Source: an uncultured Candidatus Saccharibacteria bacterium (GTDB taxonomy: Bacteria; Patescibacteriota; Minisyncoccia; Minisyncoccales; MHMH01). Taken from it: a stretch of 30,667 bases of DNA. This document shows, piece after piece, positions 1,570-25,502 of the stretch (its first letter is position 1; each line of letters opens with the position of its first letter). The position numbers and the translations under genes are program-made. The notes below the pieces were generated by a model that was not told the origin of the DNA, ran no database searches, and saw only the letters and a program-made list of their open reading frames with translations. The stretch lies in NCBI GenBank assembly GCA_964486395.1, contig CAZALP010000001.1, positions 1 through 30,667 of the forward strand. Direction: 5' to 3'.

Positions 1570-1640
1570 ACCCGGTAGTGAAAATTTGGCTGCTGCCGGG
1601 CAGCGAATAATTTTAAATTGTCGAATTTCTACTACCGGAT
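1570..1640. repeat. Inverted-repeat-bounded element, copy 1 (ACCCGGTAGTGAAA...AATTTCTACTACCGGAT)
   Basis: Imperfect terminal inverted repeats with an internal GCTGC-cgg-GCAGC hairpin. Both ends recur at 20679-20756. Confidence 0.75.
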
Positions 1641-18515: not shown

Positions 18516-19470
18516 AAAAATCGTTTGTCTGGGCGGGGGAAATGCCATGCCGAAAGCCGTGCTTGAGGGATTGAAAAATTATCCTCTGCAGATTTCGGTA
18601 ATTTCGGCCATGCTTGATTCGGGGGGATCTGCCGGGCGGGAGAGAGATTATTTCAAAACTAAAGTGTCTTTTGGCGATTTCCGCCGGGCAGCTTTGGCTT
18701 TATCCGGTGCGCCCCCGGAGAAAAAAGAAATACTGGCTTCTCGCCTCAAGGACGGTCCCCTGGAGAATCACGTTTTAGCCAATCTTTATTGTTCTTCTTT
18801 TGTAACGGCTGCCAACAATTTTGAGCAATCTATGGAAGAGCTGGAAGAAGAAATTAAAGAAGATTTGGAAATTCTGCCCAGGCATGAGCTTTTGCCGGCC
18901 ACTCTTGACGACGCCACCCTTTGCGTAGAATTGGACAACGGGCAAATTATTAAAGGAGAGGGTAATATAGACGTTCCCAAGCATGACGGCAAAATAGGAA
19001 TAAAGAGGATATTTTTGGAGCCCGAAGCCAAAGCATACCCAAAAGCCCTGGCCGAAATTAAAAAAGCAGATTTAATAGTTATCGGCCCGGGGGATTTGTT
19101 TTCTTCCCTGATCCAGATTTTATTAGTCCGAGGAATCCCCGAAGCTATTAAGAAAAGCAAAGCCACAAAAGTCTATATCTGCAATTTAATGACCAAAAAC
19201 GGCGAAACTAACAATTTCTCGGTTTTGAATTTCGCCGGAGAGATTGAAAAATTGTTGGCAGACAGATTGGACTTCGTAATTTACAATAATTCTTTTCCCA
19301 GAAAAGAGATAATCGAAAAATATAAAAAAGATCATCCTCAATTTCTGGAACCGGTTCCCTTCGACCAAGCTTCTTTGCCCTCTAATTTCATAGGCCTGGA
19401 TTTATTGAGACCCGGCCTTCTGGAGCACGACCCTCAAAAAATATCCGATATTCTAATTTCCATAATATGA
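18493..19470 (+). CDS. YvcK/GlmR (CofD-related) uridine-diphosphate-sugar-binding protein
   Basis: IVCLGGG, DSGGSAG, GDFRR, GEGNID, IGPGDLFSSL, YICNLMT and HDP motifs; overlaps the beta subunit gene by 23 bp. Confidence 0.88.
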   Translation: MLSINLNKKIVCLGGGNAMPKAVLEGLKNYPLQISVISAMLDSGGSAGRERDYFKTKVSFGDFRRAALALSGAPPEKKEILASRLKDGPLENHVLANLYCSSFVTAANNFEQSMEELEEEIKEDLEILPRHELLPATLDDATLCVELDNGQIIKGEGNIDVPKHDGKIGIKRIFLEPEAKAYPKALAEIKKADLIVIGPGDLFSSLIQILLVRGIPEAIKKSKATKVYICNLMTKNGETNNFSVLNFAGEIEKLLADRLDFVIYNNSFPRKEIIEKYKKDHPQFLEPVPFDQASLPSNFIGLDLLRPGLLEHDPQKISDILISII

Positions 19471-20687
19471 TTTCCCAAGTTGTAATTTTGGCTGCGGGTG
19501 AAAGTTCCCGCTTTTGGCCGCTGAATTACCGGCATAAGGCTCTTTTTAAAATAATGGGTAGGCCTTTGATTTGGTATACGCTGGATGGCTTCAAAAAGGC
19601 AGGGATTAAGGAAGCTGTTATCGTTCAGGGGCCCCAAAAAGAAATCCAGCAGGGATTGAAAAACTATGTTTTTCCCAACTTAAAGTTGAATTACGTCATC
19701 CAAAAAAAACCCAAGGGAATGGGCGATGCTCTGTTTCAGGCTAAAAATTCACTAAAAGACAGGTTCTTTGTTGCGCATGCTCATCGTTTGGATGCCCCAG
19801 AGTATATCAAGCCTTTGAAATCGGAAAAAGCCTCCTTGGTTTTGTTTGCGGTAAAAACAGCCACCCCCTACCTTTACGGAGTTTTAGAATTCCAGGGGAA
19901 CAAAGTGAAGAGAATCGTTGAACAGCCAAAAAAGGGAAAGGAGCCTTCCGATTGGGGGGTGAGAGGATTTTATCTTTTGTCCAAAGATTTCTTCGATTAT
20001 TACACAAAAGTGAGAGGGGGGCGCTACGACTTTGAAAAGACTCTTAATTTATTAATTAAATACAAGGGAGCCAAACTGGTGAAGACCAATAAAGAGGAAT
20101 TAAATTTGAAATACCCTTGGCATTTGTTTTCCGTCTCTCAGTATCTGATGCAGAATTACTTGAAATCAAAGATTTCCAAGTCCGCTGCCGTTGCTAAAGA
20201 CGCTGTGATTAAGGGGCCAGTATACATTGGAGAAAGAGTCAAGGTTTTCGAAGGAGCTGTAATCAAAGGCCCTTGCTATATCGGAGACGACTGCATGATA
20301 GGAAGCAATTCTATAGTCAGAGATAATACCAATCTGGAAAAGAATGTTTTAATCGGAGCTTTGAGCGAAGTGACCCGCTCCATTTTTCAGGAAGGCGCTC
20401 ATTGTCACTCCGGATATTTCGGAGACTCGGTTTTCGGAGAAAATTGCCGATTGGGAGCGGGAACCGTAACAGCCAACGTCAAATTGGACAGGGGAGAGAT
20501 AAAATCTACCGGTTTGAGTTCTCTGGGAGCAATCGCGGGAAAAAATACCAACATAGGAATCAATGCTTCTTTGATGCCAGGCGTTTTGATCGGATCAAAT
20601 TGCACAGTTGGTCCGGGTTCAGTAGTTTTTGATAATGTTAAAGATAATCAAGTGCACTTTACCAAATTCCAGACCTTGACCCGGTAG
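19467..20687 (+). CDS. Sugar-1-phosphate nucleotidyltransferase with C-terminal left-handed beta-helix (archaeal GlmU-like)
   Basis: VILAAGESSRFWPL, KALFKIMGRPL, YPWHL and hexapeptide repeats including HSGYFGDS and GAGTVTAN. Confidence 0.85.
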   Translation: MISQVVILAAGESSRFWPLNYRHKALFKIMGRPLIWYTLDGFKKAGIKEAVIVQGPQKEIQQGLKNYVFPNLKLNYVIQKKPKGMGDALFQAKNSLKDRFFVAHAHRLDAPEYIKPLKSEKASLVLFAVKTATPYLYGVLEFQGNKVKRIVEQPKKGKEPSDWGVRGFYLLSKDFFDYYTKVRGGRYDFEKTLNLLIKYKGAKLVKTNKEELNLKYPWHLFSVSQYLMQNYLKSKISKSAAVAKDAVIKGPVYIGERVKVFEGAVIKGPCYIGDDCMIGSNSIVRDNTNLEKNVLIGALSEVTRSIFQEGAHCHSGYFGDSVFGENCRLGAGTVTANVKLDRGEIKSTGLSSLGAIAGKNTNIGINASLMPGVLIGSNCTVGPGSVVFDNVKDNQVHFTKFQTLTR

Positions 20688-20756
20688 TGAAATTTTAACA
20701 GGATTTCCGAAACGGAAATTTTATCCACGACGTGGGTCAAAATTCTACCACCGGAT
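20679..20756. repeat. Inverted-repeat-bounded element, copy 2 (ACCCGGTAGTGAAA...AATTCTACCACCGGAT)
   Basis: Same termini as 1570-1640 with a different interior: ATTTCCG-aaa-CGGAAAT and CCAC-gac-GTGG hairpins. It contains the TAG stop of the GlmU-like gene. Confidence 0.75.
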
Positions 20757-20814
20757 TGATAAAAAAAGAGATAATCTGATAAGATGTAATATCGTTAACA
20801 AAAGGAGGTGTCGA

Positions 20815-21024
20815 ATGCTTATCATTGAAAAGAATTCCACGTGGTTGGGCAAAGGGGCGATTGTTCCGACGAAAAAAGAACTTGAGGTGATTATTCATGC
20901 TCTTATAGAAGAGTATGACCAAGTAGTCCGCAGCGGTGGAAATCGTTACGGACCGATGGATCATCTCGAAATGAAAGCTTTAATAGAAGAATTACAAAAA
21001 TACAAGACAGAAAGGGGCTTATAG
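20815..21024 (+). CDS. Small hypothetical protein (69 aa)
   Basis: Strong SD AAAGGAGGTG at 20801-20810, TGaTAAGAT extended -10 at 20777-20785, and a hairpin plus T tract over the stop. No family recognised. Confidence 0.75.
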   Translation: MLIIEKNSTWLGKGAIVPTKKELEVIIHALIEEYDQVVRSGGNRYGPMDHLEMKALIEELQKYKTERGL

Positions 21025-23981: not shown

Positions 23982-24450
23982 TTGGGCCGGACGATGGAAT
24001 TGGCTGGATGCTTTGGGTATTTTTTCGGCCAAATATTTAATTTTCATACTGGTAGCCCTAGTGATTTTCATTTTTTGGAGAAAACGAAAAGTTATCATCG
24101 GCACCTTTTTAGCGGCAGTTTTGGCCAAATTTGTGATTGTTGATTTGATTCGTTGGATTTGGCCCAAGGCCAGACCATTTGTTGAAAATAATGTTCATTT
24201 GCTTATCAATAAAATTAACCAATCGGCTTTTCCCTCGGGCCATGCCGCTTTTGCCTTCGCTTTATCGGCAGTTGTTTATTTTTATAATAAAAAGGCCGGC
24301 ATTTTATTTTTTGTTGCCAGCTTTTTGATTGCTGTTTCCCGAGTTTTTGTTGGCGTTCATTGGCCATCAGACATTGTGGCTGGAGCCGGAATCGGAATTT
24401 TTTCCGGCTGGCTGGTTATAAGGATTTTCAAAAAGAAAAACTCGAAATAA
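23950..24450 (+). CDS. PAP2 family phosphatase (undecaprenyl-pyrophosphate phosphatase-like)
   Basis: KARPF, FPSGHA and SRVFVGVHWPSD catalytic motifs. Confidence 0.92.
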   Translation: MDYLLFQKINSWAGRWNWLDALGIFSAKYLIFILVALVIFIFWRKRKVIIGTFLAAVLAKFVIVDLIRWIWPKARPFVENNVHLLINKINQSAFPSGHAAFAFALSAVVYFYNKKAGILFFVASFLIAVSRVFVGVHWPSDIVAGAGIGIFSGWLVIRIFKKKNSK

Positions 24451-24477
24451 CAACTATGGTCTTGATTTCGAGTTTTT
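24436..24477. repeat. 42-bp palindrome, copy 1 (terminator-like)
   Basis: 13-bp perfect arms AAAAACTCGAAAT/ATTTCGAGTTTTT overlapping the PAP2 stop codon; a second copy lies at 28618-28659. Confidence 0.85.
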
Positions 24478-24574
24478 GGGGGCGGGAGGAGTCGCCCTAA
24501 GAGAGCAAAGGAGTTTACCTCTTTCATTTTTTTGTTGCACAAAGTTAAAATCCCCATGAAGAGGATTCAGTTTG

Positions 24575-24658
24575 TGCCGCGGGAGGGAGTTGAACCCTCA
24601 AGAGCATAAGCTCATACGATTTTGAGTCGTACGCGTATTCCAATTCCGCCACCGCGGC
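24575..24658 (-). tRNA. tRNA-Leu (anticodon CAA), CCA end not encoded
   Basis: Reverse complement folds: GCCGCGG/CCGCGGC acceptor stem, TACGA-CTCAAAA-TCGTA anticodon arm, GAGC-TTAT-GCTC variable arm, GAGGG-TTCAACT-CCCTC T arm, discriminator A followed by CAA. Confidence 0.96.
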
Positions 24659-24671
24659 AAATTACCTTATT

Positions 24672-24700
24672 AATTTATCAATTTTTTTATTGTTTGTCAA
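24672..24700 (-). promoter_or_regulatory. sigma70 promoter of tRNA-Leu
   Basis: TTGACA-17 bp-TAAATT with an extended TG on the minus strand. Confidence 0.7.
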
Positions 24701-24722
24701 TTTAAAAATTATGTGCTAATTT
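24694..24722 (+). promoter_or_regulatory. sigma70 promoter of parAB (predicted leaderless)
   Basis: TTGTCA-17 bp-TAATTT with an extended TG; predicted +1 falls at about the ATG at 24729. Confidence 0.6.
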
Positions 24723-24728
24723 GATTTA

Positions 24729-25502
24729 ATGACCCGTATTATCGCCATAGCGAACCAGAAAGGAGGCGTGGGGAAGAGTTCTGTTGCAACTAATTTGCCT
24801 GTTTTTTTAAGTGCCACGGGCAAAAGAGTTTTGCTGGTTGATATGGACTCTCAAGCCAACGCCACTTTATCTTTGGGGATTGCTCCGCGCCGTCTGCCTC
24901 TTTCTATATATCACGCTTTGATGGGTCAAATTAGCCCTTCGGCTATTATCAGGAAAAGCCCGTTTTTTAATTACGAAATTATGCCGGCTTCCCCGGATTT
25001 GGCGGGAGCCACAGTAGAATTGGTTAATTCGGAAGCCAGAGAATTCAAGCTCCGCCAGATTTTAGAAAAAGTAAAAGAACCCTACGATTTTATCTTCATT
25101 GATTCTCCTCCCAGTTTGGGCTTGCTGACCATAAACGCTCTTTGTGCCGCCGATGAAGTTTTGATACCCGTGCAGTGCGAGTACTTGGCTTTGGAAGGCT
25201 TGAAACAACTCCTCAGTACCATTAATTTAGTCAAAGATAACTTAAAGCCGGATTTGAGGATTGCCGGCGCCCTTTTGACAATGTATAGTAGAAATAACAA
25301 GGTTTCTCGGGAAGTAGCCAAAGAAGTGAGGAGAAATTTTCCAGGTTACGTTTTTGATACCGTCATTCCTAGAACTATAGTATTGGCGGAAGCCCCAAAA
25401 TTCGGAAAAACTATTTTGCAATACGCTCCCGCTTCCATGGCCGTAAAGGCTTATCGGGAGCTGGCAGAGGAGTTGATAAATTTAAATAATAAAAAAACAT
25501 GA
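24729..25502 (+). CDS. parA: ParA/Soj chromosome partitioning ATPase
   Basis: Deviant Walker A NQKGGVGKS, DMDSQANAT, IDSPPSLG, PVQCEYLALEG and LAEAP. Confidence 0.96.
   Translation: MTRIIAIANQKGGVGKSSVATNLPVFLSATGKRVLLVDMDSQANATLSLGIAPRRLPLSIYHALMGQISPSAIIRKSPFFNYEIMPASPDLAGATVELVNSEAREFKLRQILEKVKEPYDFIFIDSPPSLGLLTINALCAADEVLIPVQCEYLALEGLKQLLSTINLVKDNLKPDLRIAGALLTMYSRNNKVSREVAKEVRRNFPGYVFDTVIPRTIVLAEAPKFGKTILQYAPASMAVKAYRELAEELINLNNKKT

Follow-up and report, generated by a model that had tools for sequence, protein, structure and literature searches.

The window, by which we mean the whole stretch of 30,667 nucleotides analyzed here, is housekeeping DNA of a bacterium with a tiny genome, and contains two short elements, W1 and W2. 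W1 sits between the stop codon (1552-1554) of a 517-codon open reading frame, which is open at the 5' edge of the window, and the ATG of glyQS (1641-2963), whose product has a class II synthetase core and an anticodon-binding domain. W2 overlaps the 3' end of a reading frame for a GlmU-like nucleotidyl/acetyl-transferase (19467-20687), and is followed by a promoter-like site, a 69-codon reading frame (20815-21024), and then tsaC and tsaD. Both are in the sense orientation of the flanking genes, and neither contains any open reading frame within its 69 or 76 bp. The features of the two elements are as follows.

1571-1639, + strand: W1, a probable gene-less MITE of 69 bp, GAAAATT(C/T)G subfamily; boundaries from family-wide comparison.
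1571-1590, + strand: left terminal inverted repeat of W1, CCCGGTAGTGAAAATTTGGC; 20-bp arm as determined from 39 copies.
1589-1605, + strand: internal hairpin of W1, GCTGCTGCCGGGCAGC, followed by an A/T-rich run; from folding, and recurring in other genomes.
1620-1639, + strand: right terminal inverted repeat of W1, GTCGAATTTCTACTACCGGA; the final base is A, and is G in most copies.
1640-1643, + strand: TATG, the word targeted by copies of the W1 type; glyQS starts with its ATG (1641-1643).
20676-20679, + strand: TTGA, upstream copy of the W2 target-site duplication.
20680-20755, + strand: W2, a probable gene-less MITE of 76 bp, GAAATTTT subfamily, with two hairpins inside; boundaries from family-wide comparison.
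20685-20687, + strand: TAG in the left arm of W2, the current stop of the GlmU-like reading frame 19467-20687.
20756-20759, + strand: TTGA, downstream copy of the W2 target-site duplication, which also opens a -35-like hexamer.
20756-20785, + strand: promoter-like TTGATA-18-TAAGAT (with TG), its -35 starting in the downstream TTGA; a consensus match only.

An earlier note on this DNA, made from the letters of the window, had described two look-alike elements here with conserved, asymmetric ends and unrelated, exchangeable interiors. The likeness of the two is borne out, with the exact bounds given above. Both start with CCCGGTAGTGAAA and finish with TTCTAC(T/C)ACCGGA, and they have in common 20-bp terminal inverted repeats (CCCGGTAGTGAAA...TTCTACYACCGGA) that enclose different hairpin interiors. 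The left 13-mer occurs exactly twice in the window, and with up to two mismatches allowed it has four matches against 0.65 expected, a number that none of 100 shuffles reaches; the right 14-mer is matched exactly in the window only at the two positions predicted for it. Each element folds as a single long hairpin closed by its own two ends, with folding energies of -29.1 kcal/mol on the + strand (z -4.4) and -23.5 kcal/mol on the - strand for W1, and of -24.6 and -31.9 kcal/mol, respectively, for W2. The interiors also fold as proposed, with one hairpin in W1 (GCTGC/GCAGC) and two in W2, but the W1 interior is not free-form, as it recurs elsewhere (see below). The GC hairpin of W1 together with GAATAATTTT (1589-1614), just 5' of glyQS, has a weak score as an intrinsic terminator.

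A search for both termini throughout this genome (G000; 484 kb in 47 contigs, 93.5% complete), which the earlier note had proposed, recovered W1 and W2 only, with no third copy of either end at up to one mismatch. Other genomes carry more. We searched for the pattern CCGGTAGTG-N20-110-CTACYACCGG in two genome samples, one drawn from the order and one from the phylum, and found copies with exact ends in 24 of 401 genomes of the order, at unrelated loci and with one to eight per genome; the two in G000 thus compare with up to eight in G144 and seven in G159. The reversed control pattern gave no matches in the order sample, and outside the order exact ends are present in only two genomes of the 401-genome phylum sample.

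Comparison of 39 distinct copies gives an inverted repeat length of 20 bp. Pairing between the arms holds at positions 1-9 and 12-20 in almost every copy, with compensatory two-sided changes at positions 13, 14, and 17-20, and position 1 is a C-A in four copies, W1 among them. At position 11 an A is opposite a C in 36 copies; the G opposite T at position 10 is present in all 39 but is uninformative, since positions 2-10 were set by the search pattern. The left/right asymmetry claimed for the window copies is therefore real and family-wide, being seen across these 39 copies from many genomes. As reconstructed from the aligned sequences, the anatomy of the family is one of 20-bp repeats starting with CCCGGTAGTG, a two-base asymmetry that marks left versus right, and a 4-bp target duplication. 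The W1 hairpin CTGC-CGGG-GCAG recurs in at least eight other genomes, including G040, G043, G069, G078, G083, G159, and G248, so that the interiors fall into subfamilies and are variable yet not arbitrary.

Evidence that these are mobile elements comes from their flanks, from empty sites, and from a nested copy. A perfect 4-nt direct repeat lies just outside C-CCGG...CCGG-G in 20 of the 39 copies, and in most of the others three of the four positions match when inspected by eye; as a control, most shifted registers give 0-2 such repeats, and one register a single base off gives eight. W2 is flanked by a perfect duplication, TTGA/TTGA. No duplication is present at the boundaries of W1, where TCAA (1567-1570) lies on one side and TATG (1640-1643) on the other. 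A copy in another genome (L053; G159:C136:1357-1503) is nested, with a variant, CCCCGTAGTG...CTACTACGGGG, lying within the CGGG loop of another copy and having CGGG on both sides as its own duplication; two insertions, one after the other, are cleanly recorded here.

The orthologous loci in related genomes are equally informative for W1. Genome G001, which is of the same genus and has 84-85% DNA identity in the flanking genes, has an empty site before glyQS, in which the stop of the upstream gene is followed by 8-9 nt and then by glyQS (...ATTGAATAG GAAATCAT TATGGAAGATTTAATG...), the element being absent. Genomes G005, G010, and G004 are also without the element at this position; the T before the ATG is kept in all of them, and TATGGA(A/T)GATTTAATG is kept in the element-free G001, G005, and G010. 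Diverged W1- and W2-type copies are present in G001 and G004, at loci other than those of G000. No clean empty site was found for W2, as the region in G001 is rearranged and has two other genes between the GlmU-like gene and tsaC.

The view that W1 and W2 are MITE-like mobile elements with conserved ends and a variable interior, as the earlier note had supposed, is thus backed by the target duplications, the empty site, the nesting, and the unrelated loci. The note had recognized that only two copies, unchanged at orthologous positions across relatives, would favor a conserved regulatory site; this genome does have just the two, but W1 is absent from the orthologous position in the closest relative, and the same four lines of evidence rule out such a site. 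A related proposal is that both are conserved structured RNAs (leaders, terminators, or processing sites) selected at the two loci and are not mobile DNA. The stable + strand folds, the covariation of the arms, the weak terminator-like hairpin in W1, and the sense orientation of both elements are consistent with it. However, W1 is absent from the glyQS site of a same-genus relative, the duplications and the nested copy speak of insertion, and an Rfam search of the window at the gathering score has its sole match at a tRNA-Leu (24575-24658), leaving both elements unmatched. Moreover, the copies in other genomes lie beside unrelated genes and in either orientation relative to them, which makes a sense-strand RNA function an unlikely reason for the elements to exist, and we consider structured RNA a very improbable explanation. 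A T-box-like leader, a Y-RNA-like stem, a kink-turn, and an integron attC site were also considered, and were dropped given the empty sites and duplications.

The choice of target differs among subfamilies. In the GAAAATTCGAC subfamily, which is of the W1 type, practically all copies are flanked by (T/C)ATG, always in one orientation, and in at least nine copies, including that at glyQS, the ATG after the right end opens a reading frame of 82 to more than 499 codons. Because this subfamily is regularly seated at a start-codon ATG, the position of W1 at the glyQS ATG is a family property and not a coincidence. The flanking words of other subfamilies include CTTG, CAAG, TTGA, TCAA, and CAAA, as well as others. 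We considered that start-codon copies are tolerated through in-frame read-through from the ATG of the upstream duplicate, but this is not a rule and holds in two of nine. At one locus (L022; G159:C3, 1497-1640) the upstream duplicate ATG is in frame through a 71-bp element and would add 25 residues. At another (L004; G033:C48:1103-1253) there is a tandem pair of copies 5 nt apart (gatac), the second of which ends on a TATG start.

When all of the ends in five copy-rich genomes were listed, pairs about 300 bp apart were apparent, and three units that measure 306-309 bp and share the 20-bp ends were recovered, at G144:C20, G144:C22, and G200:C11. The only open reading frame in the units at G144:C20 and G200:C11 is intact and codes for about 87 residues (MFYTY(M/I)LRS...LYIGYT.NLKKRL.EHN...); that at G144:C22 appears degraded, judging by eye. 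The product matches the Pfam GIY-YIG family with an E value of 1.9e-16 (the general family only), and an NCBIfam search with it gave nothing above the cut-off. Among proteins of solved structure, the closest are BH0048 (PDB 1zg2) and EF2693 (PDB 1ywl) of UPF0213, with weak E values of 4e-4 to 8e-4. These stand-alone, UPF0213/Slx1-like GIY-YIG proteins have the same size and single-domain layout as the element nuclease in spite of the weak similarity, and we know of no mobile-element context for either of them. The TAG stop of the nuclease gene overlaps the right arm (..TTAGTCGAATTTC), and the same TTAGTCGAA is kept in many of the short copies. W1 and the full-length unit have in common the 20-bp ends and a few subterminal bases; the W1 internal hairpin is absent from the latter. 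Full-length copies with ends exactly of the W1/W2 type are found in one genus only.

Two species of a single genus have units at the same start codon: G144:C22:4084-4389 is 306 bp long with a GIY-YIG gene that appears degraded, and G200:C32:14808-14922 is 115 bp long. The two have the same outer ends and unrelated interiors, and the site is either a reused hotspot or one at which a unit has been replaced in place.

Homologues of the nuclease are far more widespread than the exact ends, with one to nine copies in 210 of the 401 genomes of the order, nearly all of them in frames of 85-120 codons. Most of the 30 best homologous loci lie within inverted repeats starting with CCC(C/G/A)GTA and flanked by (T)ATG...TATG, and among these best 30 the closer a protein is to the query, the closer are its ends, so that the gene and its ends move and change together. 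In 28 copies spanning about 45-99% identity, the catalytic residues Tyr, Tyr, Arg, His, and Glu are conserved. Of the 11 genomes whose nuclease homologues are closest (E < 1e-30), five carry exact-end MITEs, as against 19 of the 390 others, although related genomes are not independent, so these figures overstate the association and are indicative only. Five of the 24 MITE-bearing genomes are without a GIY-YIG match.

Genome searches found no small GIY-YIG gene in G000 or G001, and the sole GIY-YIG match in G000 is a 336-codon frame on contig C18 that is probably uvrC. W1 and W2 are therefore most likely stranded relics in this genome. A generic scan of G000 for further copies gave a single candidate, a 104-bp hairpin unit outside the window (C22:1939-2042) with the ends CCCCGTTTAGAAATTT...AAATTTCTAACGGGG and no clear duplication visible. 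Ends of this type bracket GIY-YIG genes in G274, G349, and G197, and we take the unit to be a probable third copy left stranded in G000, one that belongs to another subfamily.

We conclude that W1 and W2 are probably non-autonomous, gene-less MITEs of a family of very small mobile elements in the CPR/Patescibacteria whose full-length members carry a GIY-YIG gene; the insertions, the duplications, the empty site, and the ends in common with the nuclease-bearing copies are all directly observed. Two features of the sequences would count against this, namely that W1 is without an upstream duplicate and that its hairpin is absent from the full-length element. Whether the GIY-YIG nuclease, acting in trans, recognizes ends of the W1/W2 type and moves the element is a more evenly balanced matter, and we would put the chances at about half. 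Counting against the nuclease link would be the restriction of exact-end full-length copies to one genus and the five MITE-bearing genomes that have no GIY-YIG match. GIY-YIG enzymes are not known to us as transposases, and we know of no property of theirs that predicts a 4-bp duplication. The fuller proposal, that the nuclease of about 87 residues is itself the transposase of an autonomous element of about 0.3 kb, with asymmetric ends, a 4-bp staggered cut, and an aim for TATG, and that W1 and W2 are its stranded MITEs, is tentative and falls a little short of an even chance.

If the nuclease does act in this way, it would recognize the ends, which might be presented as a hairpin of single-stranded DNA, and would mobilize units with and without the gene. 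The two ends, or the two strands, could then be told apart by the fixed G-T/A-C mismatch. A unit in single-stranded form would fold whole into a hairpin, which recalls the Ssn nucleases discussed below, enzymes that cut single-stranded DNA beside their hairpin repeats. Members of the W1 subfamily insert at TATG in one orientation, which in most cases places the right end against the start codon of a host gene, glyQS being one example; the insertion of W2 was at a TTGA in the 3' end of the GlmU-like gene, whose last codons it replaced and whose TAG stop it now supplies.

A second possibility is that W1 and W2 are MITEs moved by another enzyme, such as an unrecognized DDE-type transposase or a host function, with the small GIY-YIG gene being a passenger or a selfish gene that repeatedly settles in such hairpins. 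Inverted ends together with a 4-bp duplication are what DDE transposition classically leaves behind, and this explanation would also accommodate the wide variation of the MITE interiors, the MITE-bearing genomes with no GIY-YIG match, and the 115-bp element of different interior in G200 at the site of the 306-bp element of G144. However, no reading frame other than the nuclease was ever seen between these ends, and in many subfamilies the divergence of the nuclease gene is matched by that of its ends. The search for transposases covered three families overall; among G000, G144, G159, G200, and G045, DDE_Tnp_1 was unmatched in all five and rve was above the cut-off only in G159. On the three families covered we regard a different mover as unlikely, and the nuclease-bearing family as the better account of the two elements.

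The earlier note had instead linked these elements to REP sequences, and had suggested looking for an HUH transposase elsewhere, pointing to the GTAG within the arm as a hallmark of REP classes. GTAG is indeed in the arm, and two Y1_Tnp proteins are encoded in G000, on contigs C4 and C23, as spread by a Y1 (HUH) RAYT-type enzyme would call for. But GTAG is not conserved at the ends of sister subfamilies, in which only CCCNGTA is roughly kept, and each Y1_Tnp gene has GC-rich hairpins of its own (GGGGCACTTTGTGCTCGGTCCGACCGA and AAATGCCGGGGTCGGACCCCGGCATTT) that bear no relation to CCCGGTAGTG. The Y1 (HUH) peel-and-paste elements leave no target duplication to our knowledge, unlike the duplications here, which are variable in sequence and 4 bp long; the full-length copies carry a GIY-YIG gene and not an HUH transposase; and the genome has no further copy of the W1/W2 ends. 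The HUH link thus fails at several points, and we give it hardly any credence. REP/REPIN-RAYT systems do resemble the W1/W2 family in having asymmetric hairpin repeats between genes and one small nuclease-type gene flanked by repeats, and differ in the enzyme and in the duplication. The two Y1_Tnp frames lie outside the window at C4:~24050-24830 and C23:~320-1050, are RAYT-like and about 240-260 codons long, and are each flanked on both sides by their own hairpin repeat; they are a separate REP/RAYT-like system in G000.

Among known bacterial MITEs, the Correia/NEMIS, RUP, and ERIC elements are short and gene-less, with inverted repeats and target duplications; they form hairpins in transcripts, lie between genes and next to them, and are often orphaned from their parent element. 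W1 and W2 are likewise gene-less and hairpin-forming, with terminal inverted repeats, and are most likely orphaned. The Correia/NEMIS, RUP, and ERIC elements descend from DDE insertion sequences at least about 1 kb long, whereas the only full-length relatives here are about 310 bp long and encode a GIY-YIG nuclease, and one subfamily is seated on TATG start codons in a fixed orientation.

The closest published system to the CPR element is that of the Ssn nucleases and their NTS repeats (Chenal et al., Nat Commun 2025, PMC11893778). Ssn are small GIY-YIG nucleases flanked by NTS/SRM hairpins, of which there are hundreds of solo repeats, and they cut single-stranded DNA beside their own hairpin repeats; the authors point out that NTS-ssnA-NTS is built like an insertion sequence, and draw a comparison with REP/RAYT (PMC11893778). 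In both systems, then, a small single-domain GIY-YIG gene has a hairpin repeat on both sides and there are many scattered copies without the gene, and the CPR nuclease gene with its solo repeats conforms to the Ssn arrangement in outline. The Ssn repeat is a hairpin of about 30 bp (CGTCATTCCCGCG..GCGGGAATC), whereas the CPR element has a 20-bp terminal inverted repeat enclosing the whole unit, and the CPR repeat is unrelated in sequence to the Ssn NTS. A target duplication, an empty site, and a seat at start codons are features of the CPR element, and none of these is reported for Ssn in the sections of the paper that were consulted; CPR/Patescibacteria are not mentioned in it (PMC11893778). 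Our search of the literature, which was incomplete in coverage, found no other report of a bacterial GIY-YIG element with inverted ends and duplications.

Were the nuclease to move these units, GIY-YIG would join the short list of transposase chemistries, and the family would be a class of prokaryotic transposon with an enzyme of a new kind. A unit of only about 300 bp would then count as autonomous, in bacteria that are poorer in genes than any others known. We know of no smaller prokaryotic transposon than this element of about 0.3 kb, if it is autonomous. Movement by the nuclease would further provide a natural origin for nuclease and hairpin systems of the Ssn/NTS type, on whose mobile ancestry the Ssn authors were limited to speculation.

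The two insertions have left marks on the host genes. W1 is in place of the 8-nt spacer of G001, which holds a Shine-Dalgarno-like AGGAAA, and the glyQS start in G000 comes directly after a hairpin of -29 kcal/mol. Initiation at glyQS may be aided by another conserved ATG, at 1653, which is preceded by GGAAGA. The last codons of the GlmU-like gene have been exchanged by W2 for ..TR-stop, and TTGATA-18-TAAGAT, which begins in the downstream TTGA duplicate, is promoter-like by its match to the consensus. Any use of the W1 and W2 hairpins by the host would be secondary, and any present effect would come only through the stable hairpins they add to transcripts. A modest practical point for the annotation of this genome is that the glyQS hairpin and the GlmU-like stop codon are then by-products of insertion and not conserved regulatory signals. 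A strong Shine-Dalgarno sequence precedes the 69-codon reading frame at 20815-21024; in G001, two different genes occupy this position.
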